From Elusimicrobiota bacterium (GTDB lineage Bacteria > Elusimicrobiota > Elusimicrobia > UBA1565): a stretch of 64,000 nucleotides of DNA. Of this stretch, positions 10,000 through 41,251 are shown one piece after another. Within the stretch, counting starts at the first letter, position 1, and every line of letters begins with the position of its first letter. The notes below the pieces were generated by a model. The model made no database searches. It worked only from the letters and a program-made list of their open reading frames with translations, and was not told where the DNA came from. Where the stretch lies: the NCBI GenBank assembly GCA_016218495.1, contig JACRDU010000097.1, forward strand, positions 841 through 64,840, given 5' to 3'. A program made the position numbers and the translations under genes.

Positions 10000-10027
10000 T
10001 CTCATCGCTCCTTTAGAATCCAAAGTC

Positions 10028-11218: not shown

Positions 11219-11309
11219 TCTCTCTCCTCGGCGTGATGCGGGGTTCATGGAACGGATATATTTCATTAAATCGCCCGACATGACCCCATACCTGCGGGGT
11301 AAACGGCCG

Positions 11310-11327: not shown

Positions 11328-11342
11328 AATCATTCCCCGGAA

Positions 11343-11379
11343 CCATGAAATCTCTGTTGTTATCACAGAACTTTCATGG
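11343..11379. repeat. 37-nt nested inverted repeat
   Basis: CCATGAAA-tc-TCTGT-tgttatc-ACAGA-ac-TTTCATGG, located 7 nt upstream of ATG 11386. Confidence 0.5.
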
Positions 11380-11385
11380 TAGGCT

Positions 11386-12549
11386 ATGGGCATGCTCAGA
11401 CGCGACGGACACCTCAGCGCAGTCCGCGACCTCCTGCGCCAGTACCCGGTCGTCGGGATCCTTGGGGCCCGGCAGGTCGGCAAGACGACTCTGGCCCTGG
11501 CGGCGGCTCGGGGCCTGAGGCTCGCAGCCCGCTTTGACCTGGAGGACCCGCGCGACCTGGCGCGGCTCGAAGACCCGATGGCGGCTCTGGAGGGACTGCG
11601 CGGCCTGGTCATCATCGATGAAATCCAACGCAGGCCGGAGCTGTTCCCCGCCCTGCGAGTCCTCTCCGACCGCCCCAAGAGGCCGGCCAGCTTCCTGATC
11701 CTAGGCAGCGCTTCGCCGTCCCTCTTGCGCCAGAGCTCCGAGTCATTGGCAGGGCGGGTCGGCTACCACAGGCTGGGCGGCTTCGACCTCCAGGAGGTCG
11801 GCCCGGGCCGCCTAGAGACGCTTTGGCTGCGCGGGGGTTTTCCCCGCTCGTTCCTAGCCCCGGATGAGTCTTCCAGCCTGCGCTGGCGGCGGAATTTCCT
11901 AACGGACTTCCTCGAGCGTGAGCTGCCGCAGCTGGGAATCCGAGTCCCGGCGGCATCGCTCCGGCGATTCTGGACGATGCTGGCCCATTACCACGGCCAG
12001 GTCTGGAACTCCTCGGAATTCGCCCGCTCCTTCGGGGTCGCCGACACGACGGTGCGCCACTATCTGGACATAATGACCGACACCTTCATGCTGAGCCGGC
12101 TCCTGCCATGGCACGAGAACCTGCGCAAAAGGCAGGTCAAGGCTCCGAAGTTCTACTTGGCCGACCCTGGGCTCCTCCACGTCCTCCTAGACATCCGAGA
12201 TGGGAAAGACCTGGCTTCGCATCCGAAGTCCGGCGCTTCCTGGGAGGGCTTCGCGCTGACCCAGGTGATGCATCGCCTCGGGGCCGCCCCGGAGGAAGGG
12301 TACTTCTGGGCCACCCACACGGGGGCCGAACTCGACCTTCTGGTCGTCCGCGGCCGCAGGCGAAGGGGCTTTGAGTTCAAGAAGAACAGTGCTCCGAGCC
12401 TCACGCCTTCCATGAGGATCGCCCTGTCGGACTTGTCTCTCGAGTCTCTGGACGTCATCTATCCTGGCGAGGAGTGTTTCCCCCTGGCCCCCAAGATCCG
12501 AGCCGTCGGGCTGGGCCGGCTGCGCCAGCACCTCGAACCGTTGGAATAG
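11386..12549 (+). CDS. AAA-family ATPase with DUF4143-type C-terminal domain
   Basis: 387-aa ORF (ATG 11392 is an alternative start). It has the P-loop GARQVGKTTLA, then …IIDEIQRRPELF… and …YFWATHTGAELDLLV…, matching the widespread ATPase/DUF4143 family. Confidence 0.8.
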   Translation: MGMLRRDGHLSAVRDLLRQYPVVGILGARQVGKTTLALAAARGLRLAARFDLEDPRDLARLEDPMAALEGLRGLVIIDEIQRRPELFPALRVLSDRPKRPASFLILGSASPSLLRQSSESLAGRVGYHRLGGFDLQEVGPGRLETLWLRGGFPRSFLAPDESSSLRWRRNFLTDFLERELPQLGIRVPAASLRRFWTMLAHYHGQVWNSSEFARSFGVADTTVRHYLDIMTDTFMLSRLLPWHENLRKRQVKAPKFYLADPGLLHVLLDIRDGKDLASHPKSGASWEGFALTQVMHRLGAAPEEGYFWATHTGAELDLLVVRGRRRRGFEFKKNSAPSLTPSMRIALSDLSLESLDVIYPGEECFPLAPKIRAVGLGRLRQHLEPLE

Positions 12550-27219: not shown

Positions 27220-29091
27220 GTGAACGAGCGCCCCAACTCCCGCCTGCCCCTGCTCTGCCTGACCGCTCTGGGCGTCGTCTACGGGGACATCGGGACCAGC
27301 CCGCTCTACGCGATGCGCGAGTGCTTCCACGGCCCGCACGCCGTGGCGGTCACGCACGACAACGTGCTGGGCGTGCTCTCGCTCATCACCTGGGCGCTCA
27401 TCATGCTGGTCACGCTCAAATACCACGTCTATGTGCTGCGCGCCGACAACAAGGGCGAGGGCGGCATCCTGGCCCTGATGGCCCTGGCCCGCTCCACCCC
27501 GCTCTCGCCGCGCCAGCAGAAAGCCGTCCTCGGGCTGGGGCTCTTCGGCGCGGCCCTGCTCTACGGCGACGGGATGCTGACCCCGGCCATCTCGGTGCTG
27601 AGCGCCATCGAGGGCTTGGAGGTGGCCACCCCGTTCTTCGCCCCCTATGTGGTGCCAATCACCGTGGCCATCCTGGTCGGGCTGTTCCTGCTCCAGCGCC
27701 GCGGCACCACCGGCATCGGCGTGGTGTTCGGCCCGCTCATCCTGGTCTGGTTCCTATTCCTGGCGGGGCTCGGCGTCCACAGCCTGTGGCAGGGTCCCTC
27801 CGTGCTGGCCGCCGTGAACCCCGCCTACGCGCTGCGCTTCCTCCTGGAGAACGGCCTGCACGGCTACCTGGTCCTCGGAGCCGTGTTCCTGGTGGCCACC
27901 GGCGGCGAGGCGCTCTACGCCGACCTGGGCCATTTCGAGGAGCGCGCCATCCAGCTCGACTGGTTCGCCGCCGCGGGGCCCTGCCTGCTCGTCCATTATT
28001 ACGGCCAGGGGGCGCTGTTGCTGCGCGACCCCTCGGCGGCCCACAACCCCTTCTACATGCTGGTCCCCTCCTGGGCGCTCTACCCGGCCGTGGCCCTGGC
28101 CGCGATGGCCACCGTCATCGCCTCGCAGGCCGTCATCTCGGGCGTCTTCTCGCTGACCCGCCAGGCCGTACAGCTGGGCTTCCTGCCCCGCGCCCACGTG
28201 GTGCACACCTCGCAGCATGAGATCGGCCAGATATACATACCCGCCGTCAACTGGCTGCTGCTGGCCTCCACCATCGCCTTGGTGGTCGGCTTCAAGAGCT
28301 CCTCCAACCTCGCCTCGGCCTACGGCATCGCCATCTCGGTGACGATGGTCGTCACCACCATGCTCGCCCACTTCGTCTCCACGGGCCTGTGGGGCTGGCG
28401 GCGCGGCGTCGCCTGGGCCGTCACCGGGACCTTCCTGGCCGTCGACCTGGCCTTCCTGGGCGCGAACTCGGCCAAGGTGCTGCACGGCGGCTGGTTCCCG
28501 CTGGCCGCCGCGGCCGCCGTCGTGGCCATATTCACCACCTGGAAGACCGGCCAGGAGACCCTGGCCGCCCTGCAGCGCGAGGGGGCCCTGCCCCTGGCCG
28601 ACTTCGCCGCGCAGACGGCCGAGAGTTCGGTGGCCCGCGTGCCCGGCACGGCGGTCTTCCTGACCAGCACGCCGGGGCTGACGCCCAGCGCGCTGCTGCA
28701 CAACATGAAGCACAACAAGGTCCTGCACGCGCGCAACGTCTTCGTCACCGTGCGCACCGAGGACGTCCCGCGGATCCGCGACGCGGAACGCCTGTCCGTA
28801 TCGCACATCACCGGCGACTTCGTCCAGGTCTCGGTGCGCTTCGGCTTCATGGAGGACCCGGACCTGCCGCAGGTGATGGCCCGCCTGGCCGAGCACGGCC
28901 TCAAGCTGCGCCCGATGGACACGACCTACATCCTCAGCGACAACACCTTGGTGACGACCGAGGCCCGCCGCATGCCGCTCTGGCGCTTGCGCCTGTTCTC
29001 TTTCCTCTATAAGAACGCCGTCCGGCCCACCCAGTACTTCAACCTCCCCATCAACCGCGTCATCGAAATCGGCCGCCAGCTCCAAATCTAG
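27220..29091 (+). CDS. kup: KUP/HAK/KT-family potassium uptake transporter
   Basis: 623-aa ORF (GTG start). It has the hallmark N-terminal LGVVYGDIGTSPLY, 12 TM-like segments and a cytoplasmic C-terminal domain. Confidence 0.95.
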   Translation: MNERPNSRLPLLCLTALGVVYGDIGTSPLYAMRECFHGPHAVAVTHDNVLGVLSLITWALIMLVTLKYHVYVLRADNKGEGGILALMALARSTPLSPRQQKAVLGLGLFGAALLYGDGMLTPAISVLSAIEGLEVATPFFAPYVVPITVAILVGLFLLQRRGTTGIGVVFGPLILVWFLFLAGLGVHSLWQGPSVLAAVNPAYALRFLLENGLHGYLVLGAVFLVATGGEALYADLGHFEERAIQLDWFAAAGPCLLVHYYGQGALLLRDPSAAHNPFYMLVPSWALYPAVALAAMATVIASQAVISGVFSLTRQAVQLGFLPRAHVVHTSQHEIGQIYIPAVNWLLLASTIALVVGFKSSSNLASAYGIAISVTMVVTTMLAHFVSTGLWGWRRGVAWAVTGTFLAVDLAFLGANSAKVLHGGWFPLAAAAAVVAIFTTWKTGQETLAALQREGALPLADFAAQTAESSVARVPGTAVFLTSTPGLTPSALLHNMKHNKVLHARNVFVTVRTEDVPRIRDAERLSVSHITGDFVQVSVRFGFMEDPDLPQVMARLAEHGLKLRPMDTTYILSDNTLVTTEARRMPLWRLRLFSFLYKNAVRPTQYFNLPINRVIEIGRQLQI

Positions 29092-29174: not shown

Positions 29175-32100
29175 GTGGGCCCAATGACGCCGGCCGGTCT
29201 CCCCCATAGGCTCAACAAGAAAATCCGCGTTTCAGCCACACTTTCCCCAGTGAAGCGCGCAATCGCCTCCGCCCTGGCCGCCATCATGCTCGTGCTGTCC
29301 CCGGGCACCGGCTGCTGGCAGGCCATGGCGCAGGTCGTGACCCGCACCGGGCCCGCCGCCGCCCCGGCCCGGGTCGTCGTCGGGGCCCCCGGAGCGCTGG
29401 GCGCCTCTCCCACCCTTTCGGCCCCCACCCTCTCAGCTCCGTCCCTGTCCGTCACTTTGCCGTCTCCCGCCGCACCCACCGCCCGCGGTGCGGCATCGGC
29501 CTCCGCCGCGGCCGCGCAGTCGGCGGTTCCCGCGGGTCTCCCGGCCCCGGCGCGGGCCGCCGGAACGGTCTCAGCCTCCGCGGCGGCTCCCGCCGCCCGG
29601 GCCGCCGCGCAGACCCAGGGCCGCGAAGCGGTCTCGGCCGGCCTCAAGAATACCGTCAAGGCCGCCGCGCCTATGCTGGAGGCCGCCAAGTCCGGCTCCG
29701 GCGGGGACGCGCACCGCGCCGGCATCCAGCTCGAGGAGCTGCTCTCCGGCGCTCCGCGCCGAGCCGCCTCGGACGCCGTCACCCCCGCCCCCGCCTCGCG
29801 CCTGCCGTCGTTCACCGGCAGAGCCCGCCTGGGCTCGGCCCGGGTCATCGGGGCCGCGCCCTCCGCCGTGATGAACGCCGTGGCCGCGCCGGCGGCCCCG
29901 CGCCCCTCCCTGGCCTCCCGCTTCTCCGCCTCCTTCCGCCGCGCCTTCCTATTTATTAGGAAGACGGCCGCCGTCGCCACCTTGGCGGCCTTCCTGCCCG
30001 TCTTCGGGATGTTCGGCGGCACCCCCTTCCAGATTCTCCCCCCGGTCACGGTCCAGGCGCAGCTGCCCGGGCAGGTTCCGGGCGCCCAAGTCCCCGTCGC
30101 CCCGCCCCAGGCCGGCGTCCCGCAGGCCCAGGTCCCCACCGCGCAGGCCCCCGTCGTCCAGGCATCCCCCATAGAGGTCTCCGTCCCTCAGACGGTGCAG
30201 GGCCGTACCGTCGGAGAGTCGGTCACCTACTCGGTGACCCTGCGGAACACTTCGAACGCCCCCGTCACGGTCTCCTCGGTTCGGACGGCCGTCGAAGAGG
30301 CGCTGCCCTGGACCCTAGAGGTGACCGGCGACGCCGACGCGGCCCCGCTGACCTTGGCCCCGGGCGAATCGAAGACCCTCACCTTCACCCTCCTGCCCTT
30401 CGACTCGGGCAAGCTGGTGCTCGAAGGCGCGGAGCTCACCATCCCGACCTCCGACCCCGAGAAGCCCATCGTCGTCAAGATCCCCTCCACCACCTTCGAG
30501 GTGGCCAGCGTCCTCACCCCGGACTGGAAGGAGAAGGGCTTCAAGGACCTGGCCGAGCTGCGCCGGGGCGAGACCCCGTCGCTCTTGTGGCTCTTGGCCG
30601 TCCCCGTGGCCCTGCTGGCCATCGCCGGCGCCGAGCGCCTGCTCGCCTCCCGCCGCCGAGGCTCCGAGCCCGTCGTCCATAACGGCCCCGCCCTCGACGC
30701 CGCCCGCACCCGGCGGGCGCGTCTGGAAGAGGGCGCGGCGTCCATGGACGCCCGGCAGTTCTACGGCGAGACCCTGACCCTGGTGGACCGTCTGCTCTCC
30801 GACCTGCGCGGCATGCCGCGCCGCGAGCGCGCCCCCGCCCAGCTCCTGAAGGAAGCCGCTGAGAAGTACTCCAGCGGCCAGCTCTCCGTCGCCCGCCGCA
30901 CCCTCGAGACAGCCGAGGCCGCCCTGCACGGCGGCAGGGCCGACTCCCCCGAGGCCCGCCGCCAGGTCCTCGTCGCCCTCAGAGAGCTCCTGGCCGACCT
31001 CTCAGACCAGCCCCGGCCCGAGGCGCCGAAGGCCGGCCTTGCCGGGCTGGCCGCTCTGCTCGGCACCGCCACCGTCTCCTTCGCCCACCCGTGGGCGCTG
31101 CTGCTCCTGCTGCCCATAGCCGGCTGGGCGCTGCACAAGTGGCGCCAGAGCAGGACCGAAGGCTGGGCCACGACGGCCCCCATCCCCGCGCAGACCGGTT
31201 GGAAGGCGCGCCTGCGCTGGGTCCCCGGCCTGCTGCGCTCTTCGGCCATCGCCCTGACCATGCTGGCGCTGGCCGGGCCGCAGCTGGGCGTCAAGCGCAC
31301 CGAGACCTACATCCCCTCCAGCGACACGGTGATCGCCGGGGACGTCTCGGGCTCGATGAGCGGGGCGCGCCTCGACGGCCTCAAGCGCGCGGTGAAGGAC
31401 TACCTGGTCGAGCAGCGCCGCGGCAGCAACAACCGCGTCGGCCTGACCACCTTCTCCGACGAGCCCTACCTGGCGGTCAGCCTCACCACCGACTACGACG
31501 CGCTGATCAGCCGCATCAAGGAGACCGAGACGGAGGGCTCCACCGCCGTCGGCAAGGCGATGCTCTCCTCCATCAGCCACTTCCTCGAGCTCAACATCAT
31601 GCAGCTCGACCAGTCCGACGCCCGGGTCGTCGAGATGCGCAAGATGGTCCTGGGCGAGGACCTCTCCGGCGCGCTGGAGTTCGCCAAGCGCCACCCGGAC
31701 CTGCTGCAGAAGGTCCTGCAGCCCGACCACACCAAGATCCTGGTGGTCTTCACCGACGGCGAGTCCAACACCGGCATCGACCCCGTCGCGGCCGCGAAGA
31801 TCGCCAAGCAGCTGGGCATCAAGGTCTACACCGTCGGCATCCAGATCGGCTCCGGCGAGCAGGCCTTGAAGGACGTCGCGCAGATCACCGGAGGCATCTA
31901 CTTCCGCGCGGAGGACGCCGACGGGATGCGCAACGCCCTGCTCGACATCTCCCGCCTCGAGAAGTCGCCCTCGCTGGTCCGCTCCCAGGTGGCGGTCAAG
32001 GACCTGACCACCCTGCTGGCGCTGCTGGCCCTGCTCTCGGTGACGCTGGAGGTCGGGCTGAGCTCCACCAAGCTCCGCACCCTGCCGGCCTTCATCCTGG

Positions 32101-35100
32101 CCGGGCTGATGGGCTTCTCGGCCGTCCAGGGGCCCGCGCCCCAGCCCCAGGGCGCCGCCCCCCAGGCGCAGGCGTCCGTGGACGCCCCGCGGGGGATCAT
32201 CGAGCGCCTGCCCCTCTCCGGCGTCCCGCAGGAGATGGCGGAGGGCAACGCCCTCTATCTGCAGGGCCGCTACGCCGACGCCGTGAAGCGCTATGGGCAG
32301 GCCCTGGAGAGCCACCCCGACGTCCCCGCCCTCTACTTCAACCTCGGCAACGCCTACCTGCGCCTGGGCGACGTCGAGCGCGCGGCCCGCGCCTACGGCC
32401 GCTTCCTGGAACTGGAGAAGGACCCCAAGGCCGCCTCCGAAGCCATCTACAACCTCGCCAACGGCGCGCTGATGAAGCAGGACGCCGAGAAGGCCATCGA
32501 GCTCTACCGCGAGGCCCTGCGCCGCGACCCGTCGAACGCCTCGGCCAAGTGGAACCTCGAGGTCGTGATGCGGCTCATGGAGGAACAGCAGAAGCAGCAG
32601 GGCCAGGACGGCAAGCAGCAGCAGAAGCAGAAAAAGGGCAAGAAGGGCCAGAAGGGGCAGAAAGGCCAGCAGGGACAGCAGCAGGGGCAGAAGGGCGACC
32701 AGCAGGGCGAACCCGGCGACCAGGACGGCGAGCCGGGCGACCAGCAGGGGAAGCCCGGGGACAAGCAGGGCAAGCCCGGCGACAAACCGGGCTCCGACGC
32801 CAAGCCCTCGCAGGGCGAGCGCGACAAGGGCGTCGACGGGCTCATCCAGGAGCAGGGCAAGGCCGAGCAGGACGGCAAGAACGGCCAGCGCGGCGCCGTC
32901 CCCCGCAAGGGCTCCGGCGTCTGGGGCTTCAGCCTCGCCGGCCTGGGCGCGGCCGCCGCGGGCTTCCAGGCCCCGCTCTGGCTCGGCGTCGCCCTCGTCG
33001 CCGTCCCGCTGGTGGCCGCCCTCGTGGCCTACGCGGTGCGCAAGAAGATCTCCGCCGCGAAGTCCCTGGCTCCCCGCGAAGCGCCCAAGCGCTTCGCCGA
33101 CTGGGCCGGGAAGCGGCGCTGGACCGCCAAGCTCATGCTCCTCTTGGCCTCCGTGCTGGGCCTGGCCATCACCGCCGGCGACCCGGTCTGGGGCACCCGG
33201 GACGCGCGCCTCAACTTCGGGGGCAAGGACGTCATCGTCGCCGCCGACGTCTCGGCCTCGACGCTCTACGCCGAGGACGGCCGCGGGGCGCGCATCGAGG
33301 GAGAGCTCTCCGAGTTCGTCACCCGCATGCAGGGCACCGACCGCATCGGGCTGGTCGTCTTCGCCGGCAAGGCCCGCACCGCCTCCCCCCTCTCCTCGGA
33401 CTACGGCACCTTCGAGTTCAAGGTCGGCCGGCTGGAGCGCGAAGCCCGCGGGCTGAGCTCCGGCTCGGACCTGAGCTCCGCCATCGAGCATGCCGCCAAG
33501 GTCTTCAACGGGGCCAAGAAGGTCGGGGACCGCCAGCGCATCCTCATCGTGGTCTCCGACGGTGAAATATTCGACAAGGACCTGAGCAAGGCCATCGACG
33601 CCGCGCGCAAGGCCGGCATCACCATCTACGCCATCGGGGTCGGGGACGCCGGCGGCACGCGCATCGCCCTGCCCAAGGCCGACGGCAGCGGCTCCGAGTA
33701 CCTGATCGACGAGAAGACCGGCCAGCCGGCCATGACCCGGCTCAACGAGGAGACCCTGCGCCAGCTCGCCTCCGCCACCGGCGGCTACTATTTCCGCTCC
33801 AGCGAGAAGGCCTCGATGGGCGGCATCCTCGGCAAGGTCGCGGCCATGTCGCAAGGCTCTGAGACGGACGCCATCAAGACCCCGCGCGGCATCGGTTATG
33901 TCTTCCTCACCCCGGCCCTGCTGCTGCTGCTGCTCGAGGCCTTCCTGCCCGCCGTCCCCCTGCTCCGGGGCCGCCGGGTCAAGGCCGCGCCTGCCGCCGC
34001 CCCCTCCGCTCCGGCCAAGACCCTCAACGGCGGCGCCCTGCTCGGCCTGGCCGCCATCCCCCTCGGCCTCTGGCCCCAGGTCCTCCCCTTCGCCGCCCTC
34101 ACCGCCGTGCTGGCCGGAGTCCTGCTCTACGACATCTCCACGCGCGGGGCCCTGACCCGCGCGGCCCGCGCCTGGCTGGGCCGCAAGGCCCCCGCCGAAG
34201 GCCTGCAGAAGGACCTCTTCGCGCTCTTCGACCGCCCCGGAGACACCCGCGAGCGCTGGCGGACGACCGACCACGCCGCCGTGAGCTCCTTCGTCGAGGG
34301 CTGGCGCGCGTCCTCTTCCGAGACGCGGCGCGTGCTCGCGCGCAAGGCCGCGGCCGACCCAGAGCTCTGGCGCGAGAAGCTCGTGGCCGCGCTGCTGGCC
34401 GAGTCGGCCTGGCCCGCCAAGAGGGGCTCCGACGAAGCGCTCGACGCCGTCCTCTCCGCCTTGAACACGGCCAAGCGCGGCAGCCTGCTCCCCCTGGAGC
34501 CCATCGTCCTCGGGGTGCTGGACCGCCGCGCCGAGCTGCCCTGGCTGAGCCATCCGGCCGTGCTGCGCCCGCTCTCGCGCCTGGCGGCCGCCGAGCTCGA
34601 CGACTCCGCCCCGGCCTCCCGCGCGGCCCTGCAGTCCCTGGCCTCGGAAGCGGACGGAGCCGTCGCTTCCGCCGCCCGCGAGGCGCTCGGCGACCAGGCG
34701 CCGGCCTTCAAGCCCACGCGGGCCCGCCGCATCGCCCGCTCCGGCGCCTTGGTCTTCCTGGCGGCCATGATGGGGCTGACCGGCCTGGCCGGCTATAAGA
34801 CCGTGGAGTTCGACGCCGCGCGCCGCCAGGCAGCCGAGACCGCCCTGTCGATCTTCTACGGCGAGGACCTCTTCATCTTCACCGACGCCTATTCCGACGA
34901 GCGCATCCCGCGCGAGGTCCTGCCCGTCCTCAAGGAGTGGCACGCCACGGGGAAGGCGGCCGCCTCGGACCTGGCCAAGGCGCTCGAGGTGCTGCGCTCC
35001 TCGCCCGACCCCAAGGCGGACAACATCCTCGAGGCTGTCTTCAAGCGCGCCGACCTGATGCCGCTCACCGACGCCTCGGAGAACCTGCTCCTCAAGACCC

Positions 35101-38100
35101 TCATCGAGCGCGACAACGAGCCCGTCTGGCGCTTCCTCAACGAGTACATGGCGTCCAACGGGGAGAACGAGAAGGCCACGGCCCGCCTCATCAAGATGAT
35201 CCGCATCGGCGCGGAGCTCGGGTCGGAAGACGTCTTCCAGAACACCTTCCATTTCCTCAAATCCCCCAACCAGACTGTCCGCCAAGAGGCCGCCCAGGCC
35301 ATCCGCGCCTCGCTGCAGGCCCCGGAGCGCGCGGGCCAGCTCGCGGCGCGCCTGAAGGCCGTCACCGAAAAGCACCCCGAGGACCCGACCATCAACATGT
35401 GGGTGGCGTTCTTCACGCTCGACCGGCTGGCCGCGGCCGACGCCAACACCATCGACCTCGGCCCGCTCGACGACCTGCTCACCGTCGCCCTCAAGAACGC
35501 CGCCAAGGGCGACGCGGCTCGCGCCGCGCTCATCGCCCAGGTGAAGCCCGGCGAAGAGGACAAGCTCCCGCCTCCCGCGCTGGTCCAGGCCTTCGGGCTG
35601 ATGGAGCGCTCCCTGGACCGCGCCGCGGGCCTGGGCGCCAACACCGACCCGCTTTCCCTGGCCGCGCGCAAGCAGGCCGACGTGGCCACGAAGAACATCA
35701 TCGTGGAGGGCCGGGCGGTCTTCCCCGAGCTCAAGCTCCAGCTCCAGAACAACGGCGTGATGCTCCCCGACCCCGCGCCGCAGCCCAGCTCCCAGGGTCC
35801 TGAGGACTCCTACGACGACTACCACGGGCACGGCGGCTACGGCGGCTCCTATGTGAATCCCGACGCCGTCTACCGCCCGACCTACACCCAGCAGCACCTG
35901 AAGGCCCTGGCCCAGGCCGTCGCCGACGCCCGTGACGCCGCCGGGGAGAAGCTCACGCCGCAGCAGCGCGAGTTCGCCGACCGGGCGCTCAAGTCCATCG
36001 AGGCCATGCTCTCCGCCGGCGCCAAGGCCGGGATGCCCGAGGGCGGCACCGCCGCCGAGGCGGCGGCCGACGACGTTAACTCCGTCCTGGTCGAAGGGAC
36101 GCAGAAGCTGCCCGGCAGCGCCTTCCTCGCCGAGCTGCGCGCGGCCAAGCTCGCCCCCGACGCCAAGGTCGGCAACGAGAAGTCCCGCGCCTACCGACAG
36201 TCCTACGCGGCCGAGGACCTGCTCAAGATACGCGCCTTCCTCATCGACCTCCTCTCCAGGGGGACGGCCGCCGAAGGGGGCAAGTCCTCGGCCTTGAATT
36301 GGAGCCAGAAGCAGTTCCTCGCCGACGCCATCACCAGGCTCGACGCCGCCATCGCGAAGCACTACCCGGCCGCCGCGGCCCTGATCCCCGCGGACCCGAG
36401 CGCCGCCCCGCTCGCCGCCTTCACGGCCGCGGCCAAGGCCGGCGACGAGGCCGCCCTGACCAAGGCCCTGACCGAACTCAAGGCCGTCTACGACGCCGCT
36501 CCGGTGAAGGACGTTGTCCTGGCGCGCTTCAAGGCCGCCTATCCCCAGTCGGCCGTCGGGTACAACGACTCCGTGCGCATGCCCGTCCTGCGGTTCTGGC
36601 TGGACCGCCTGGCCGAGGCCGACGGGGCCAAGCTCGACCGGGAAGGCGTGCTCGAGATACTGAAGGCCGTCTCCCCGGACAAGATGGAGGCCGGGAAGGC
36701 CCTCGCCGCATACGACGCGCTGGCCAAAGCCCTCCAGGCTTCCGCCACGCCCGCCCCCGCCCTGGTCGAGTTCGCCCAAGAGCAGGTCCGCCTCGGCGCC
36801 AAGCGCGCCTATGACGGCGCGAAGGACGCGCTGGACGCCAAGGCCTTCGCGGCCCTTCAGAACACCCTTCGCGCCGAGCGCCTGCTCACCAAGGACCTGG
36901 CGATGCGCGAAGTGGTCAAGCCCGTCCATCTGCGGGCCCTCGAAGCCTCCCTGAAGGCCTCGAAGAAGGCCCCCGCCTGGACCGTCTCCACCGTGGCGAA
37001 GCTGCAGGCCCTCACCAAGGCCGCCGGCGTGCCCGACGGCGGGACCACCGCGGAACGCGCCGCCGATGCCGTCAACGAGATGCTCGGGAAGGGCGACAAC
37101 GCCTTCCCCAGCGCCGCATGGTACGACGCGCTCCGGGCCGAAGGCCTGGCCCCCGCCGGCAGCGCCCGCGGCTGGGAGCGGGCCCTGGCCCAGAGCTACA
37201 CCCCCGACCAGCTCCGCGCGCTCAACGCCTTCATCAACCGGACCCTCTCCTCGGGCCAAGGCTGGGACTATTCCGGGAAACCCTCGGAACTCACCCCCGC
37301 GCAGGGCAAGGCGCTGGCCGAGATGGCCGAAGCCCTCGATTCGGCCCTGGCGCAGTTCTATCCGGACCAGGCCGCCCTCCAGCCCGCCGCCCTCGGCCGC
37401 CTCGTCGCGAACGGCGACCATGCCGCCGCCTCGGCCCGGCTCGCCGCCGCCGGCTCGCCCGCCGAGGCCCTGGCCATCCTCGACGCCGCCGCCGAGCGCA
37501 GCGCGGGCTCTGCCGAGGCGCAGAAGCTGGCGGCCCGCCTGCTGGCGGAGGCCCTCTCCGGCAAGAACGGGCCCGGCCTGCTCGAAAAAGAGGAGTCCCT
37601 GGGCTTCCTGCACGAGCTCGGCGAGCGCCTGGGCGCGCGCGAGGGCGAGGCCCTGGGCCAGCTCTCCTCGGCGCTGCGCGCCGCCCCCAATCCGACGCTG
37701 AAGGCCTTCATCGCCGCCGCCGTCGACGCGCGCGCCGAGGAGCTCGCCGACTCCATCAAGGGCGCGCCCGGCGCCGAACAGGCCCTGATCGAGGCCGGCG
37801 TCGTCACCAAGCGCGGCTACAGCTCGGACACCCGCTCGTCGTTCACCCAGCGCCACCTGCGCGGGCTGCAGGCCGAGGCCGCCCGGCTCGCCTCGGTGAA
37901 GGGCCTTACCGAGGAACAGTCCTCCGCCGTCGACAAGGCCCAGAAGCTCCTGCCCGACCTGCTCAAGGCGGCGGTGGACGCGGGAGTCCCCACCGGCACG
38001 GCCCCGGGCGACATCGCCGCGGAGCGCCTCTCCGACATCGTCTACGAGGGGCACATGCTCTTCCCGGGCAGCCGCTTCGTCGACGAGCTGCGCGCCGCCA

Positions 38101-39419
38101 AGCTCCTCCCTCCCAAGTCCGGGAGCAACGCGGTCGACGACAAGGACATGCCCAAGACCTGGAGCAAGGCCGAGGTCGCCGCCCTGCGCGGCTTCCTCCA
38201 GGGAGTCCTCTCCTCCGGGCAGGGCTGGGACCAGGGCACCGGGACCCGCGAGCTCACCAAGGAGGAGAAGGCCTACCTCGAGAATACGCTCAAGTCCCTC
38301 GATTCGCTCATCTCCAACTACGACGCCCCCAAGCCCGCCGCGAAGAGCCTGCACGGCGGCGCCTTCGGGCTGTTGGCCGTCGGGGCCGTAGGCCTGGGCT
38401 CCACGCCCGCGGCGGCGGCCTCGGGCCTGCTGCTGCCCGTGCTGGCCCTGGCCGCCGCGGCCTTCGCCGTCTATGCCGGCTGGCTCATCTTCAAGGACCG
38501 CGCGCCGCAGCAGGCGCCCGCCGCGCCGCGCCTGGGCCCTTCGCAAGAGGTGCTGGCGCGCTACAAGAAGCTCGACCTGGCCGCCAAGAAGCTGGCCGCG
38601 TCGCTGACCGAGGGGAAGTTCCGCTCCCGCCTGGTCGGCCCCAGCGGCTTGAGCTTCGCCGAGCTGGCCGCCTACCAGGGCGAGGACATCAAGTCCATCA
38701 ACTGGAAGGCCTCGGCCAAGTCCGACGACCTGCTCGTCAACCGCTACGAGCAGGACAAGGACATGCCGCTCATGCTGCTCATCGACCTGTCCGCCTCCGG
38801 GGACTTCGCGGCCGGCGGCACCGAGAAGCGGCGCGTCATCGAGGACGCCGCGGCCCTGCTGGCCCTGACGGCGGCCCGCCGCAACATCCGCGTCGGCGCC
38901 CTGCTCTTCACCGACCGCATCGAAGCCTTCATCCCGCCCGCCGGCGGCCAGCGCCATGCCTGGGAGCTGGCGCGCCAGGTCATCGACAAGGCCCCCCAGG
39001 GCAGCAAGACCGACCTCAAGCTGGCGCTCGACTTCGCCAACACCCGCTTCCGGAGCCGCGCCATGGTGGTCCTGCTCTCCGACCTGCTCGGGGAAGGCTG
39101 GGAGTCCTCTTTGACCGCCGTGGCCAAGCGCCACGACTTCCGCGCGGTGCGCGTGGCCGACCCGGCCGAGGTGAAGCCCCTGCCCGACGCCGGGCTCGTC
39201 CTGATGCGCGACGCCGAGGCCGGCTCCCAGGGCTGGGCGGACACTTCGAGCCGCTCGTACCGCGAAGCCGCCGGACAGGCCGTGAAGGGCCGCGAACGCC
39301 GCATCGCCGCCGCCCTCGAGGCCGCCCGCACCCGGGCGCTGACGCTTTACACGGACCAAGACCCCATCGAGGAACTGTCGCGCAGGTTCCTGGCCAAGAA
39401 GGCCGGAGCCCGAGACTAA
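29175..39419 (+). CDS. Giant (3,414-codon) polytopic fusion protein: BatD-like Ig module, BatA-like vWA, BatC-like TPR, BatB-like vWA, long helical/HEAT-like region with 3x repeat, and C-terminal DUF58
   Basis: A single stop-free frame of 10,245 nt, with recognisable modules all in that frame (listed as sub-features below). Possible starts are GTG 29175, ATG 29184 or GTG 29250 (VKRAIASALAAIMLVL…). The gene ends in TAA 39417-39419, 11 nt before the moxR ATG. The 2,848-aa antisense ORF is G/R/A/L-rich low-complexity junk. Confidence 0.85.
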   Translation: MGPMTPAGLPHRLNKKIRVSATLSPVKRAIASALAAIMLVLSPGTGCWQAMAQVVTRTGPAAAPARVVVGAPGALGASPTLSAPTLSAPSLSVTLPSPAAPTARGAASASAAAAQSAVPAGLPAPARAAGTVSASAAAPAARAAAQTQGREAVSAGLKNTVKAAAPMLEAAKSGSGGDAHRAGIQLEELLSGAPRRAASDAVTPAPASRLPSFTGRARLGSARVIGAAPSAVMNAVAAPAAPRPSLASRFSASFRRAFLFIRKTAAVATLAAFLPVFGMFGGTPFQILPPVTVQAQLPGQVPGAQVPVAPPQAGVPQAQVPTAQAPVVQASPIEVSVPQTVQGRTVGESVTYSVTLRNTSNAPVTVSSVRTAVEEALPWTLEVTGDADAAPLTLAPGESKTLTFTLLPFDSGKLVLEGAELTIPTSDPEKPIVVKIPSTTFEVASVLTPDWKEKGFKDLAELRRGETPSLLWLLAVPVALLAIAGAERLLASRRRGSEPVVHNGPALDAARTRRARLEEGAASMDARQFYGETLTLVDRLLSDLRGMPRRERAPAQLLKEAAEKYSSGQLSVARRTLETAEAALHGGRADSPEARRQVLVALRELLADLSDQPRPEAPKAGLAGLAALLGTATVSFAHPWALLLLLPIAGWALHKWRQSRTEGWATTAPIPAQTGWKARLRWVPGLLRSSAIALTMLALAGPQLGVKRTETYIPSSDTVIAGDVSGSMSGARLDGLKRAVKDYLVEQRRGSNNRVGLTTFSDEPYLAVSLTTDYDALISRIKETETEGSTAVGKAMLSSISHFLELNIMQLDQSDARVVEMRKMVLGEDLSGALEFAKRHPDLLQKVLQPDHTKILVVFTDGESNTGIDPVAAAKIAKQLGIKVYTVGIQIGSGEQALKDVAQITGGIYFRAEDADGMRNALLDISRLEKSPSLVRSQVAVKDLTTLLALLALLSVTLEVGLSSTKLRTLPAFILAGLMGFSAVQGPAPQPQGAAPQAQASVDAPRGIIERLPLSGVPQEMAEGNALYLQGRYADAVKRYGQALESHPDVPALYFNLGNAYLRLGDVERAARAYGRFLELEKDPKAASEAIYNLANGALMKQDAEKAIELYREALRRDPSNASAKWNLEVVMRLMEEQQKQQGQDGKQQQKQKKGKKGQKGQKGQQGQQQGQKGDQQGEPGDQDGEPGDQQGKPGDKQGKPGDKPGSDAKPSQGERDKGVDGLIQEQGKAEQDGKNGQRGAVPRKGSGVWGFSLAGLGAAAAGFQAPLWLGVALVAVPLVAALVAYAVRKKISAAKSLAPREAPKRFADWAGKRRWTAKLMLLLASVLGLAITAGDPVWGTRDARLNFGGKDVIVAADVSASTLYAEDGRGARIEGELSEFVTRMQGTDRIGLVVFAGKARTASPLSSDYGTFEFKVGRLEREARGLSSGSDLSSAIEHAAKVFNGAKKVGDRQRILIVVSDGEIFDKDLSKAIDAARKAGITIYAIGVGDAGGTRIALPKADGSGSEYLIDEKTGQPAMTRLNEETLRQLASATGGYYFRSSEKASMGGILGKVAAMSQGSETDAIKTPRGIGYVFLTPALLLLLLEAFLPAVPLLRGRRVKAAPAAAPSAPAKTLNGGALLGLAAIPLGLWPQVLPFAALTAVLAGVLLYDISTRGALTRAARAWLGRKAPAEGLQKDLFALFDRPGDTRERWRTTDHAAVSSFVEGWRASSSETRRVLARKAAADPELWREKLVAALLAESAWPAKRGSDEALDAVLSALNTAKRGSLLPLEPIVLGVLDRRAELPWLSHPAVLRPLSRLAAAELDDSAPASRAALQSLASEADGAVASAAREALGDQAPAFKPTRARRIARSGALVFLAAMMGLTGLAGYKTVEFDAARRQAAETALSIFYGEDLFIFTDAYSDERIPREVLPVLKEWHATGKAAASDLAKALEVLRSSPDPKADNILEAVFKRADLMPLTDASENLLLKTLIERDNEPVWRFLNEYMASNGENEKATARLIKMIRIGAELGSEDVFQNTFHFLKSPNQTVRQEAAQAIRASLQAPERAGQLAARLKAVTEKHPEDPTINMWVAFFTLDRLAAADANTIDLGPLDDLLTVALKNAAKGDAARAALIAQVKPGEEDKLPPPALVQAFGLMERSLDRAAGLGANTDPLSLAARKQADVATKNIIVEGRAVFPELKLQLQNNGVMLPDPAPQPSSQGPEDSYDDYHGHGGYGGSYVNPDAVYRPTYTQQHLKALAQAVADARDAAGEKLTPQQREFADRALKSIEAMLSAGAKAGMPEGGTAAEAAADDVNSVLVEGTQKLPGSAFLAELRAAKLAPDAKVGNEKSRAYRQSYAAEDLLKIRAFLIDLLSRGTAAEGGKSSALNWSQKQFLADAITRLDAAIAKHYPAAAALIPADPSAAPLAAFTAAAKAGDEAALTKALTELKAVYDAAPVKDVVLARFKAAYPQSAVGYNDSVRMPVLRFWLDRLAEADGAKLDREGVLEILKAVSPDKMEAGKALAAYDALAKALQASATPAPALVEFAQEQVRLGAKRAYDGAKDALDAKAFAALQNTLRAERLLTKDLAMREVVKPVHLRALEASLKASKKAPAWTVSTVAKLQALTKAAGVPDGGTTAERAADAVNEMLGKGDNAFPSAAWYDALRAEGLAPAGSARGWERALAQSYTPDQLRALNAFINRTLSSGQGWDYSGKPSELTPAQGKALAEMAEALDSALAQFYPDQAALQPAALGRLVANGDHAAASARLAAAGSPAEALAILDAAAERSAGSAEAQKLAARLLAEALSGKNGPGLLEKEESLGFLHELGERLGAREGEALGQLSSALRAAPNPTLKAFIAAAVDARAEELADSIKGAPGAEQALIEAGVVTKRGYSSDTRSSFTQRHLRGLQAEAARLASVKGLTEEQSSAVDKAQKLLPDLLKAAVDAGVPTGTAPGDIAAERLSDIVYEGHMLFPGSRFVDELRAAKLLPPKSGSNAVDDKDMPKTWSKAEVAALRGFLQGVLSSGQGWDQGTGTRELTKEEKAYLENTLKSLDSLISNYDAPKPAAKSLHGGAFGLLAVGAVGLGSTPAAAASGLLLPVLALAAAAFAVYAGWLIFKDRAPQQAPAAPRLGPSQEVLARYKKLDLAAKKLAASLTEGKFRSRLVGPSGLSFAELAAYQGEDIKSINWKASAKSDDLLVNRYEQDKDMPLMLLIDLSASGDFAAGGTEKRRVIEDAAALLALTAARRNIRVGALLFTDRIEAFIPPAGGQRHAWELARQVIDKAPQGSKTDLKLALDFANTRFRSRAMVVLLSDLLGEGWESSLTAVAKRHDFRAVRVADPAEVKPLPDAGLVLMRDAEAGSQGWADTSSRSYREAAGQAVKGRERRIAAALEAARTRALTLYTDQDPIEELSRRFLAKKAGARD
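30171..30510 (+). other. Giant ORF module: Ig-like beta-sandwich (BatD/CARDB/DUF11-like) followed by a TM helix
   Basis: IEVSVPQTVQGRTVGESVTYSVTLRNTSNAPVTVSSV…LTLAPGESKTLTFTLLP…IPSTTFEVAS, then LLWLLAVPVALLAIAG. The assignment is by pattern and is tentative. Confidence 0.45.
31080..31925 (+). other. Giant ORF module: BatA-like N-terminal TM pair plus vWA domain
   Basis: FAHPWALLLLLPIAGWAL… (BatA-type N-terminus), a MIDAS DVSGS at nt 31341-31355, …VGLTTFSDEPY…EGSTAVGKAM…ILVVFTDGESNTG…IKVYTVG…. Confidence 0.75.
32238..32560 (+). other. Giant ORF module: TPR repeats (BatC-like)
   Basis: AEGNALYLQGRYADAVKRYGQALESHPDVPALYFNLGNAYLRLGDVERAARAYGRFLELE…AEKAIELYREALRRDPSNASAKWNL. Confidence 0.75.
32581..32830 (+). 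repeat. In-frame Q/K/G/D/P low-complexity tract, including four tandem 21-nt repeats (32706-32789)
   Basis: …QQKQQGQDGKQQQKQKKGKKGQKGQKGQQGQQQGQKGDQQ, then GEPGDQD-GEPGDQQ-GKPGDKQ-GKPGDKP. The units start at 32706, 32727, 32748 and 32769. Confidence 0.9.
32964..33810 (+). other. Giant ORF module: BatB-like TM pair plus second vWA domain
   Basis: FQAPLWLGVALVAVPLVAALVAY…, a MIDAS DVSAS at nt 33246-33260, …RIGLVVFAGKARTASPL…GSDLSSAIEHA…ILIVVSDGE…ITIYAIGVG…GGYYFRS. Confidence 0.75.
35871..38333 (+). repeat. Three divergent tandem copies of a ~310-350-aa helical module inside the giant ORF
   Basis: The conserved cores are at 35871-36368, 36912-37364 and 37836-38333. Examples: …TQQHLKALAQ…AGMPEGGTAAEAAADDVNSV…LRAAKLAPD…IRAFLIDLLSRG…AIAKHYP; …VHLRALEA…AGVPDGGTTAERAADAVNEM…LRAEGLAPA…LNAFINRTLSSGQGWD…ALAQFYP; …TQRHLRGLQA…AGVPTGTAPGDIAAERLSDI…LRAAKLLPP…LRGFLQGVLSSGQGWD…LISNYD. 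Confidence 0.8.
38545..39416 (+). other. Giant ORF module: DUF58 (vWA-like, MoxR-associated) domain, preceded by TM helices
   Basis: …YQGEDIKSINWKASAKSDDLLVNRYEQDKDMPLMLLIDLSASGDF… (DLSAS at nt 38784-38798), then …VGALLFTDRIEAFIPP…SKTDLKLAL…AMVVLLSDL…. The preceding hydrophobic stretch FGLLAVGAVGLG…LLLPVLALAAAAFAVYAGWLIF lies at ~38350-38500. Confidence 0.8.
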
Positions 39420-39430
39420 AGGAGCCGAAC

Positions 39431-41251
39431 ATGAAAACCAAGACCCTTGAACGGACCGAGACGCTGCTGGCCATGCTGGTGGCCGCCGCCCTCGTCTCCC
39501 CGACGCCGGCGGCCGCGCAGGCCATGCGCACCGCCGCCCCCGCGGCACGGACCGGCCTCTCCGGCGTCGGCGCGGCCGGCTCCGTCACGGTCTCCCCGAG
39601 CGCGGCGTCCCTGGCCCCGACGGCCCCCGGGCTCGCTCCCGTGCTGCCCTCCGCCTCGGTATCCCTGCCGCAGGTCTCCCCGACGGCCAGGCCCGCCGCC
39701 GCCGCCCCCGCGCAGGCCGGAGGACTGCCGGCCCGGGCCTCGGCGGCCGCCCCCGCCGCGGCACCGGTGACCGTTAACGGCGCCCGGGCGGCCAAGGCCC
39801 TCTCCGCCTCCGCTTCTCCCATCGGCGAAGTGCTGAGCGGCATGCCCGAGGCCTCCAAGGCCGCGCCGTCGGCGTCCTTCTCCGCCGGGGTCTCCCTCGA
39901 GGACGCCATGACCCGCCGCGGCAGCCGGGCCGGTTCTGACGCCGTCGTCCCCATCCCCCCGCGCACGATGCGCGGCAGCCTGCTCGCCCGCCCCAACGGC
40001 GCGCTCAACGCGGTCGGGACGGAGGACTGGGTCCCGCTGGCGCAGGCGGTCCCCGCCCCCAGGCCGGGAGGCGCGCTGGCCCTGGCCGCGGCCGCCACGA
40101 AGGACATGCTGGGCACGACCGCCGGCAAGCTGGCCCTGCTGGGGCTCGGCGCCGCGGTGGGGCTCTTGGCGCTGCACGCCTACCTGCCCGCGGCGGTGGC
40201 CTCGCTGTCGCTGTTGCTGATGTCCGGCACGCTGGCGCGTACCCCCGCCCCCGAGGCGGCCCCCGAGGACGCGGCGCTGACCGCCGAAGTGAAGGAGGTC
40301 TCCGGGCTCATCGGCAAGCTGCGCGCCGAGGTCGGGAACGTCATCGTCGGCCAGCAGGAGATGGTGGACTCCATCATCATGGCGATGATCGCCAACGAAC
40401 ACCTCCTCCTCGAAGGCGTGCCGGGCGTGGCGAAGACCGCCACCATCAAGACCTTCGCCGCCGCCACCGGGGCCGACTTCCAGGTCATCCAGGGCACGCC
40501 CGACAAGATGCCCGCCGACATCCTGGGCGCTGAGATCCTGCAGACCGACCAGGCCACCGGCCAGCGCGTGATGAAGCTTGAGAAGGGCCCCATCTTCGCG
40601 CAGTTCGTCCTGGCCGACGAGATCAACCGCATGATGCCGAAGACCCAGGCCGCTCTCCTGCAGGCCATGCAGGACCGCATGGTCTCCATCGGGCGCGAGA
40701 CCCTGCCCCTGCCCAAGCCCTTCCTGATGCTGGCCACGATGAACCCGCTCGAACAGGAAGGCGTCAACGTGATGCCTGAAGCGCAGCTGGACCGCTTCAT
40801 GTTCAAGGTCATCGTCCCCCAGCCCAACCGCGAGGACCGCAAGCGCATCAACGAGATCAACCGCAAGCGCGAGAAGCCCAAGGCGTCGAAGGTCGTCAGC
40901 CTCGAGGACCTCGAGCGCGCCACGGCCCTGGCCGAGCGCGTGGCCCTGAGCGCCGGGATGTCCGAGTACATCCAGGACATCCTCGACGCCGCCCAGGACC
41001 CGTTTAAGTACGGGGTGGGCCAGAAAGGCCTCGTCGAACAGGCGATGGTCACCCGCGCCTCCATCATGATGGAGAAGGCCGCGCGCATCCAGGCCTTGAT
41101 GAACGGACGATCCTTCGTCACGGCGGAGGACGTCATGAAGGTGGCGCCCAAGATCCTGCGCCACCGCATCATCCTCAGCTACGCGGCCGGCGAGATGACG
41201 ACCGACCAGCTCATCGCGGAGATCCTGTCCACGCTCAAGATCCCGAGCTAG
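39431..41251 (+). CDS. MoxR-family AAA+ ATPase with ~275-aa N-terminal signal/Ala-Pro-Ser-rich/TM extension
   Basis: Last 606 codons of ORF 37118..41251, with AAAGGAG (39418-24) 6 nt before ATG 39431. The N-terminus reads MKTKTLERTETLLAMLVAAALVSPTPAAAQA…, with a hydrophobic segment LALLGLGAAVGLLALHAYLPAAVASLSLLLMSG. The MoxR core follows: VIVGQQEMVDSIIMAMIANEHLLLEGVPGVAKT (Walker A), FVLADEINRMMPKTQAALLQAMQD (Walker B), and …ILRHRIILSY. Confidence 0.9.
   Translation: MKTKTLERTETLLAMLVAAALVSPTPAAAQAMRTAAPAARTGLSGVGAAGSVTVSPSAASLAPTAPGLAPVLPSASVSLPQVSPTARPAAAAPAQAGGLPARASAAAPAAAPVTVNGARAAKALSASASPIGEVLSGMPEASKAAPSASFSAGVSLEDAMTRRGSRAGSDAVVPIPPRTMRGSLLARPNGALNAVGTEDWVPLAQAVPAPRPGGALALAAAATKDMLGTTAGKLALLGLGAAVGLLALHAYLPAAVASLSLLLMSGTLARTPAPEAAPEDAALTAEVKEVSGLIGKLRAEVGNVIVGQQEMVDSIIMAMIANEHLLLEGVPGVAKTATIKTFAAATGADFQVIQGTPDKMPADILGAEILQTDQATGQRVMKLEKGPIFAQFVLADEINRMMPKTQAALLQAMQDRMVSIGRETLPLPKPFLMLATMNPLEQEGVNVMPEAQLDRFMFKVIVPQPNREDRKRINEINRKREKPKASKVVSLEDLERATALAERVALSAGMSEYIQDILDAAQDPFKYGVGQKGLVEQAMVTRASIMMEKAARIQALMNGRSFVTAEDVMKVAPKILRHRIILSYAAGEMTTDQLIAEILSTLKIPS

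Follow-up and report, generated by a model that had tools for sequence, protein, structure and literature searches.

A conserved signal-peptide-like leader on cytoplasmic enzymes and transporters of Elusimicrobiota, a candidate N-terminal membrane anchor

Four otherwise unrelated proteins encoded in a 64,000-nucleotide (nt) stretch of an Elusimicrobiota genome (contig JACRDU010000097.1 of assembly GCA_016218495.1; hereafter the window) carry the same type of N-terminal leader, with a head that resembles a secretory signal peptide and a long, low-complexity tail. The carriers are the product of a giant open reading frame (ORF) that fuses parts of a Bat operon, a MoxR AAA+ ATPase, a fusion of an ATP-grasp ligase to an MFS transporter (ATP-grasp::MFS), and an MFS-like protein. 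We put at roughly 60% the probability that the leader is an Elusimicrobiota-specific N-terminal membrane anchor joined to a cytoplasmic leash, and not an export signal. The analysis draws on the window, with a G+C content of about 70%, on 62 fetched loci and on database proteins.

A shared N-terminal module

The head of the leader comprises a tip of Lys or Arg residues, about 15 hydrophobic residues, a Pro or Gly together with a Trp or Tyr, and the ending A-x-[ASG]/Q, in which the slash marks the presumed cleavage position. It is followed by a cationic start free of acidic residues and then by 60-200 disordered residues rich in Ala, Pro and Ser; some carriers add a block of the form LEEL..RR..SDAV. 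The leader of the giant protein, from GTG 29250, runs through SPGTGCWQAMA/Q to PTAR, and that of MoxR, from ATG 39431, through PTPAAA/Q, again to PTAR. The ATP-grasp::MFS fusion, from ATG 57663 on the minus strand, displays SPWPAWS/Q and LPEAR, and the MFS-like protein, from GTG 57842, LPQGAWA/Q and LPEAR. An Ala-rich tract follows in each of the four. These features agree with the original prediction, all of whose quoted sequences were found in place, and the two GTG starts do yield the VKR[AV] residues to which it had pointed (VKRA and VKRV).

The ending A-x-[AS]-Q, which had been put forward as the hallmark of the leader, turned out not to be specific, as it also closes the signals of ordinary exported proteins of the same genomes. 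By hand count, A-x-A/Q was present in 27 of 28 carriers versus 10 of 31 ordinary signals, the latter including PstS (ASA/QTT) and a periplasmic family (AMA/QSGDSPF). Neither the LP…AR ending nor the exact Ser/Pro/Leu repeats belong to the conserved core of the wider families; both are local to the lineage. What sets the carriers apart from ordinary signals is the stretch after the Gln. At positions +1 to +18 the net charge is +1.29 in carriers versus -0.87 in 31 ordinary exported proteins (p 2e-6), and acidic residues number 0.07 versus 2.61 (p 2e-11), p-values that are indicative only, given the related sequences and hand-curated cleavage sites. Ordinary signals with the A-x-A/Q ending occur in the window at 8980-10035 (minus strand) and at the fetched loci L006, L012, L016, L017, L020, L022 and L023. 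The presence of this ending on about a third of ordinary Elusimicrobiota signals resembles the 'Q-rule' of Bacteroidetes.

All four N-termini are translated. The G+C content at third codon positions (GC3) lies between 0.78 and 0.98 in frame along the leaders, and true starts further downstream, or separate upstream ORFs, were rejected. Downstream starts that leave the leaders untranslated had been named beforehand as a way in which the prediction could fail; the leaders are coding both by GC3 and by conservation in orthologues. The alternative upstream starts at 29175 and 57812 were likewise rejected. GC3 is only 0.64 in the extension 29175-29249 and 0.60 in 57812-57841, and the GTG starts at 29250 and 57842 are therefore preferred. 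A MoxR from an ENA metagenome, 80% identical to that of the window, differs by indels of 2, 10 and 2 codons, yet its leader stays in frame, and the orthologue pairs of the MFS-like and ATP-grasp::MFS proteins likewise keep theirs in frame, with whole-codon indels. Within the leaders the ratio of nonsynonymous to synonymous substitution rates (dN/dS) amounts to 0.3-0.7, and for the signal-like head by itself to 0.07-0.4, compared with 0.13-0.24 in the catalytic and transport domains. The basic tip MK.RALRSA is genuine, since the DNA of locus L060 encodes it upstream of the called start.

Comparisons at the sequence level confirm that the four leaders constitute a shared module and are not chance low complexity. 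The proposal that this module is specific to the lineage is supported by its recurrence on at least seven to eight protein architectures across metagenome-assembled genomes (MAGs) of Elusimicrobia and Elusimicrobiota. Shuffled-composition controls, which the original prediction had called for, were run on the first 75 residues after the Gln and gave Smith-Waterman z-scores of 5.6 (giant versus MFS-like protein), 4.2, 3.6, 2.6, 1.8 and 1.4; the similarity exceeds chance, although the pairs taken alone are moderate.

A profile was built from 13 MFS-like homologues from other genomes only, over positions -24 to +40 around A-x-A/Q, and was run against the full set of 599 six-frame ORFs in the window, whose composition is equally GC-driven. 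The top three of the 599 were the giant protein (19.6 bits, E 2e-5), the ATP-grasp::MFS fusion (E 0.012) and the MFS-like protein; without composition correction all four carriers lead, with 40, 32, 28 and 15 bits versus a background maximum of 11. A profile of 255 columns, made from the giant protein, two MoxRs and an MFS::GNAT fusion of another genome, retrieved the window ATP-grasp::MFS protein (E 8e-6) and its orthologue at locus L009 (E 2e-4). On the N-terminal motif alone, MoxR has the weakest claim to membership. It shares with the giant protein a second, non-repetitive block (AGIQLEELLSGAPRRAASDAVTPAP in the giant, AGVSLEDAMTRRGSRAGSDAVVPIP in MoxR; BLASTP E 2e-4), which recurs in the same MFS::GNAT fusion (E 0.002). 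Recent duplication at the DNA level, or gene conversion between the leaders, was rejected as an explanation, the best DNA match being 68 nt at 76% identity.

Distribution of the leader

The module appears to be specific to the phylum Elusimicrobiota, as every named homologue of the window proteins comes from an Elusimicrobia or Elusimicrobiota MAG. In the MFS-like family it is found in all 12 database homologues (36-85% identity) and at 20 genome loci, a count that includes genes for which the caller had picked a downstream ATG. The heads of this family end in P-x-G-A-[WY]-A/Q or P-G-x-G-x-[WY]-x-A-x-[AG]/Q and are followed by an alternating hydrophobic run that ends in Pro, often with Gly-Gly (for example, QVAPIRVNAPLGG). 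Among the ATP-grasp::MFS homologues (53-86% identity), 58 of 63 contain A-P-W-P-A-W-[AGS]-Q-[TV]-A-R-[VI]-V-x-P, with an entropy of at most 0.5 bit at the core positions versus 2-2.8 bits in the spacer. The head of the window protein is a member of this near-invariant APWPAW.Q..R family.

Further carriers include an MFS::GNAT fusion (L002:5575-8103), a fused ABC exporter of 1516 residues (L004:5351-9901), stand-alone ATP-grasp ligases (P0090-P0092), a MoxR that lacks the hydrophobic segment following the leader of the window MoxR (P0094), and a polytopic protein of 1118 residues from a 56%-GC genome that keeps the head and a LENVLTG..R.DAS block (P0095). The soluble protein P0022 is a borderline member. 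It comprises 568 residues (L019:15120-16826, minus strand) without a family match, and has a head, a spacer and a LEAL.LS..KRDRDD block; the D…E-x-K pattern of its C-terminal part recalls PD-(D/E)xK nucleases. A mycosin-like S8 protease at locus L027 was not counted as a carrier, because it was found by a composition filter only and missed by the profiles.

The Kup K+ transporter (27220-29091, plus strand) and the APC amino-acid permease (50120-51433, plus strand) of the window have no leader, their transport domains starting directly, and the module is therefore not general to the polytopic membrane proteins of this genome. Locus L004 contains a conventional, unfused Bat operon without leaders (1-3041, minus strand; a MoxR of 329 residues, DUF58 and VWA), which adjoins the leader-bearing ABC exporter and an MFS-like paralogue (5351-12370, plus strand).

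No Pfam (E 0.01) or NCBIfam (E 0.1) model matches within the leader, and literature searches found no description of the module. An alignment of 11 leaders offered no stretch conserved enough for a metagenome search; the pattern A[LFA]P[QAS]GA[WY]AQ matched 398 metagenome stretches, none of which was confirmed by tblastn, and a DNA pattern for P-x-G-A-W-A-Q-h-A-x-x-R matched 31 metagenome loci, all but perhaps one by chance. A profile search of 1.84 billion representative proteins returned three proteins only, because the composition correction leaves few bits, and a region-limited word search with the MoxR leader returned one orthologue only. A functional link between the Bat/MoxR and ATP-grasp/MFS loci, also suggested by the original prediction, is not established by a shared leader; only the divergent pair of ATP-grasp::MFS and MFS-like genes is syntenic in another genome (L009).

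Membrane topology and the anchor model

The tips MKR, MNRSRLK, MKTKTLERTE and MK.RALRSA each precede 11-16 hydrophobic residues, in the manner of the n- and h-regions of Sec signal peptides. The A-x-A rule holds across about 100 carrier sequences, with Ala at -3 and Ala, Ser or Gly at -1; in the ATP-grasp::MFS family, -3 is Ala in 57 of 58 sequences and -1 is Ala in 40, Ser in 9 and Gly in 9. Two further marks of Sec substrates are absent from the carriers, namely a passenger that works outside the cytoplasm and an early mature region that is neutral or acidic. Other types of N-terminal signal were rejected. The Tat consensus S/T-R-R-x-F-L-K does not occur, the window proteins having KR, NRSR and KTK, and MRR being present in some MFS-like homologues only. 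For a lipoprotein signal (L-[AS]-[GA]-C) there is no conserved Cys, and the GTGC of the giant protein is no lipobox and is not common to the others. The Gly before the h-region and the Glu at +5 of type IV prepilin leaders are absent from all carriers.

The leader thus presents a paradox: its head is that of a textbook Sec-like signal, yet the residues behind it must be cytoplasmic. In the window ATP-grasp::MFS protein and in that of L009 the ATP-grasp domain comes directly after the leader, with no hydrophobic segment, and the Mg-ATP motif residues of the domain are invariant. In the ligases P0090-P0092 and in MoxR P0094 the only hydrophobic segment is N-terminal, and a soluble ATP-dependent domain follows it. 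In the MFS-like family a Lys/Arg cluster precedes the first transmembrane helix (TM1), motif A (IKRLGLKS) comes after TM2 and every odd-numbered loop is basic; motif A and these loops place the start of TM1 in the cytoplasm, and the family has the classical 12-helix topology with both ends cytoplasmic. TM1 of the ABC exporter aligns with the start of ABC_membrane (positions 7-268), and a charge cluster of +5 precedes the first TM of the giant protein. A TM helix hidden in the Ala-rich tract or the leader was rejected in view of Kyte-Doolittle means of 0.7-1.7, many prolines, charged breaks and indels between orthologues.

Judged from these domain arrangements, export of the passenger is excluded, because ATP-dependent domains or first helices with a cytoplasmic start follow the leader with no TM helix between. 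Among the roles that had been proposed, targeting in the sense of a classical export signal is no longer tenable, since the passengers cannot be exported, and anchoring is the one favoured by the evidence. We infer that the bulk of the leader, at least its C-terminal end, lies in the cytoplasm together with everything behind it. In AlphaFold2 models the spacer comes out disordered, the predicted local distance difference test score (pLDDT) being below 50 at residues 14-129 and 159-208 in the MFS-like protein and at residues 21-129 in the ATP-grasp::MFS fusion; the head is modelled, with low confidence, as a helix, a break at the Pro and a second short helix across A-x-A/Q.

In the proposed anchor, the Lys/Arg tip, the hydrophobic residues (about 15), the Pro/Gly break, the interfacial Trp/Tyr and the A-x-[ASG]-Q ending would hold the protein at the inner membrane. 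The conserved cationic, acid-free stretch [LVT]-A-x-R-V-V-x-P would come next, and the disordered, almost uncharged spacer of 60-200 residues, rich in Ala, Pro, Ser and Leu, would serve as a flexible leash; in several carriers a putative short helix, LEEL..G..RR..SDAV or RFxELRAAF, would lie near the following domain. A stand-alone ligase would thereby be kept beside its exporter. Locus L062 fits such an arrangement at the membrane, as a tethered-type stand-alone ligase (2879-4603) adjoins a separate, convergent MFS gene (4788-6440), whose own N-terminal extension is acidic and has no head. A cationic early region reportedly disfavours Sec translocation.

Two variants of the anchor may be envisaged. 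In variant (a) the head would stay uncleaved, as a helix-break-helix that is re-entrant or stalled and keeps both ends in the cytoplasm, as in PglC and LpxM. The features described for re-entrant domains (PMC6133551) are found in the head: a location within the first 50 residues, preceding positive charges, Pro/Gly and Trp/Tyr residues, and a topology compatible with function. Breaker and aromatic residues form the motifs P-x-G-A-[WY], P-W-P-A-W and P-G-x-G-x-[WY], and in the ATP-grasp::MFS family Pro occupies -4 in all 58 sequences and Trp occupies -5 and -2 in 52-53 of them. In variant (b) the leader would insert as a procoat-like hairpin, signal peptidase I would cut at A-x-A/Q, a marginally hydrophobic stretch after the conserved Arg would cross back, and a short, possibly pyroglutamate-capped stub would be left outside. 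In many ATP-grasp::MFS homologues this stretch (VVAPVSGxSASAAGAAIVS) is moderately hydrophobic, with a Kyte-Doolittle mean of up to 1.79.

Several observations weigh against the anchor model. The head is a textbook signal for Sec and signal peptidase I with a strict -3/-1 pattern in about 100 sequences, and proteins that are certainly exported, such as PstS, have the same A-x-A/Q ending; both are hard to explain without real cleavage and favour variant (b) over (a). Variant (b) is burdened in turn by a return segment that is marginal (median Kyte-Doolittle 19-residue mean of 1.37, with 9 of 58 reaching 1.6), that contains 1-3 prolines in most cases and that has no basic cluster after it. The hydrophobic segment behind the leader of the window MoxR would fit a periplasmic leader in that protein, and the S8 protease of L027, whose N-terminus is loosely similar, is probably extracytoplasmic.

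A more far-reaching proposal, which we advance only tentatively, is that the leader represents a new class of N-terminal sorting signal, either a Gln-capped hairpin anchor processed by signal peptidase or a signal for a dedicated factor, that leashes cytoplasmic enzymes and transporters at the inner membrane. The R-V-V-x-P strand and the LEEL..SDAV helix might then dock the carriers to a common scaffold. We know of no general route in bacteria by which membrane-tethered cytoplasmic enzymes are made via a cleavable signal.

It appears unlikely that topology depends on the context, that is, that the leader is an ordinary cleaved signal with a periplasmic linker, perhaps pyroglutamate-capped or O-glycosylated, where a hydrophobic segment follows (window MoxR, giant protein), and a relic or differently handled element on the ATP-grasp, MFS and ABC proteins. 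Canonical signal-peptide features with the -3/-1 rule kept, an Ala/Ser/Pro composition like that of periplasmic low-complexity linkers, the hydrophobic segment of 33 residues that separates the leader from the AAA+ domain in the window MoxR, and the cleavage-site form shared with PstS are all consistent with such an arrangement. However, P0094 keeps the leader without that segment, and the +5 cluster of the giant protein lies on the leader side of its first TM. Moreover, the motif is strongest (58 of 63 ATP-grasp::MFS homologues) exactly where export is impossible, which argues that the head is no relic.

A single-pass anchor whose N-terminus lies outside and whose C-terminus lies inside, so that the whole leader is cytoplasmic, would resolve the paradox by one assumption. 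ZipA pairs such an anchor with a Pro/Gln-rich cytoplasmic linker, and the Arg at +4 on the C-terminal side of the head is conserved. This orientation is nevertheless improbable, as the N-terminal flank carries a charge of +2 to +3 (MK.RALRSA, confirmed by the L060 DNA, MKR and MNRSRLK), at least that of the C-terminal flank, and by the positive-inside rule an N-terminus inside is favoured. The hydrophobic run before the Pro break, at 11-16 residues, is also too short to span the membrane.

That there is no shared module, and that generic signal peptides and Ala/Pro low complexity have converged under 70% GC, is largely refuted and very improbable. The HMMER composition correction does take away most of the score, a leave-one-out search with the four window leaders recovers the giant ORF only, MoxR gives z-scores of 1.4-1.8 with the ATP-grasp and MFS proteins, and the spacer evolves fast. 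Against convergence stand the cross-class profile matches, significant even with that correction, and the non-repetitive second block; no off-frame ORF of equal composition reaches such scores, the motif is near-invariant in 58 homologues and occurs in a 56%-GC genome, and Kup and the APC permease are free of it. Classical export of whole passengers, including the ATP-grasp or MoxR domain, has nothing in its favour except the signal-peptide-like sequence itself and is hardly credible, as there is no ATP outside the cytoplasm for ATP-dependent enzymes, the MFS and ABC domains would be inverted, judged by motif A, by the positive-inside rule and by where the nucleotide-binding domains lie, and the passenger domains are under strong purifying selection (dN/dS as given above).

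Signal peptides are routinely used to sort predicted proteomes into exported and cytoplasmic proteins. What is surprising here is that a signal compatible with signal peptidase is strongly conserved across the phylum on ATP-dependent enzymes of the cytoplasm. If the leader is a tether, localisation predictions for the carriers in Elusimicrobiota would be wrong, and the module would offer a portable means of holding cytoplasmic enzymes beside their transporters. Cleavage by signal peptidase, if it occurs, would reveal a way for large cytoplasmic enzymes to acquire a membrane anchor whose N-terminus is outside, and would bear on the rules of translocation versus retention after a signal peptide. 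The leader is also a concrete test case for re-entrant membrane domains, which are poorly predicted.

Feature map and comparison with known systems

Table 1. Carrier genes and leader features in the window
Feature	Position	Strand	Remarks
Giant ORF	29250-39419	+	3389 residues; fusion of Bat-operon parts: BatA N-terminus, three VWA domains, TPRs, DUF58 (Pfam)
Giant: signal-peptide-like element, VKR + h-region + SPGTGCWQAMA	29250-29330	+	Residues 1-27; Gln28 at 29331-29333
Giant: cationic acid-free start QVVTR..ARVVVGAP and Ser/Pro/Leu repeats to PTAR	29331-29486	+	Residues 28-79
Giant: Ala-rich low-complexity tract	29487-29717	+	Residues 80-156
Giant: second conserved block, AGIQLEELLSGAPRRAASDAVTPAP	29718-29792	+	Common to MoxR and the MFS::GNAT fusion of another genome
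Giant: first TM helix, after +5 Arg/Lys cluster	29964-30020	+	Marks the putative cytoplasmic end of the leader
MoxR: Shine-Dalgarno AAGGAG	39419-39424	+	6 nt before ATG 39431; overlaps the TAA stop of the giant ORF
MoxR AAA+ ATPase	39431-41251	+	606 residues; AAA_3 at residues 324-458 (Pfam)
MoxR: signal-peptide-like element, MKTKTLERTE + h-region + SPTPAAA	39431-39517	+	Residues 1-29; Gln30 at 39518-39520
MoxR: cationic start, Ser/Pro/Leu part to PTAR (39691), Ala-rich tract	39518-39883	+	
MoxR: second conserved block, AGVSLEDAMTRRGSRAGSDAVVPIP	39884-39958	+	
MoxR: 33-residue hydrophobic segment before AAA+ domain	40130-40228	+	Absent from MoxR homologue P0094
ATP-grasp::MFS fusion	57663-54592	-	1023 residues; Pfam matches LAL_C2, ATP-grasp_3, MFS_1
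ATP-grasp::MFS: signal-peptide-like element, MNRSRLK + h-region + SPWPAWS	57583-57663	-	Residues 1-27; Gln28 at 57580-57582
ATP-grasp::MFS: QLAR..ARVVVAP, Ser/Pro/Leu part to LPEAR (57424), Ala-rich tract	57244-57582	-	Predicted disordered (AlphaFold2)
ATP-grasp domain start, GKTVIMVG	57220-57243	-	Directly after the leader, no TM helix between
MFS-like protein	57842-59782	+	646 residues; no Pfam match of its own; homologues match MFS_1
MFS-like: signal-peptide-like element, VKR + h-region + LPQGAWA	57842-57913	+	Residues 1-24; Gln25 at 57914-57916
MFS-like: cationic start, Ser/Pro/Leu part to LPEAR (58075), Ala-rich tract	57914-58234	+	pLDDT <50
MFS-like: conserved helix EEAKEAFRN..RFRELRAAF	58235-58321	+	Family motif RFxELRAAFGxR; pLDDT 72-77
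MFS-like: Pro-rich linker, ARARG basic cluster, TM1 (58475-58531)	58322-58531	+	TM1 start predicted cytoplasmic

The Shine-Dalgarno sequence of MoxR and the TAA stop of the giant ORF overlap within 39417-39433, and because of this overlap so close to the MoxR ATG the Bat fusion and MoxR are probably translationally coupled. The hydrophobic segment of MoxR is also present in the L001 orthologue and is cleanly missing in P0094, which retains the rest of the leader. The divergent ATP-grasp::MFS and MFS-like genes are separated by 178 nt (57664-57841), and their pairing is kept in L009. A TATAAT sequence lies 7 nt upstream of GTG 57842, so that the MFS-like mRNA may have a very short 5' leader or none at all.

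The ligase part of the ATP-grasp::MFS protein is similar to the L-amino-acid ligases 3vot and 3wo1. The ligase-like fusion occurs in the window, at L009:315-3377 (minus strand) and in about 60 Elusimicrobiota proteins in all, and the neighbouring genes of L062 represent its split form. The conserved fusion together with the split form suggests that the ATP-grasp and MFS parts make up a system that makes and exports a dipeptide.

SipW-cognate, YSIRK and KxYKxGKxW signals are class-specific signal peptides with exported passengers, for which NCBIfam/TIGRFAM models exist. The leader resembles them as a lineage-restricted class of N-terminal signal common to unrelated passengers; unlike theirs, its passengers are not exported, and none of these models matched here. 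Like Sec/signal peptidase I signals in general, the leader has a positive n-region and an h-region some 15 residues long, with a helix-breaking Pro at -6, a Gln at +1 and small residues in positions -3 and -1. A Gln at +1 after the signal peptidase I cut, which is converted to pyroglutamate, is the 'Q-rule', described as specific to Bacteroidetes (PMC5837995, PMC10653852). In contrast to Sec signals, the leader continues after the Gln with a cationic region that lacks acidic residues, its passenger is cytoplasmic or a transporter with a cytoplasmic start and no helix between, and the c-region and early mature motif are conserved far beyond the needs of cleavage.

Like ZipA and TonB/TolA (PMC12204202), the carriers combine an N-terminal membrane element with a long Pro-rich, low-complexity spacer that distances the functional domain. 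However, the N-terminal flank of ZipA is not basic, the spacer of TonB/TolA is periplasmic, and neither is shared by many unrelated proteins. PglC and LpxM are monotopic enzymes with re-entrant helices that were long mispredicted as membrane-spanning (PMC6133551). The leader similarly has an N-terminal hydrophobic domain after Lys/Arg residues, a conserved Pro break, and Trp/Tyr and polar residues, and algorithms predict a spanning segment despite a catalytic domain that has to lie in the cytoplasm. The helix of PglC packs on the globular domain, whereas in the carriers the disordered spacer between makes such contact unlikely; the strict small residues at -3 and -1 have no counterpart in PglC, and there is no sequence homology.

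M13 procoat has a cleavable signal peptide and a second hydrophobic segment, which insert as a hairpin. The second segment of the leader differs from that of procoat in being rich in Ala, Ser, Gly and Pro, mostly below the hydrophobicity of a TM helix and without a basic cluster after it. The overall arrangement is nonetheless alike, in that the signal peptide is followed, after a short loop, by another stretch, uncharged and moderately hydrophobic, behind which the remaining chain is cytoplasmic, and in the carriers it would be borne by large enzymes and polytopic transporters.

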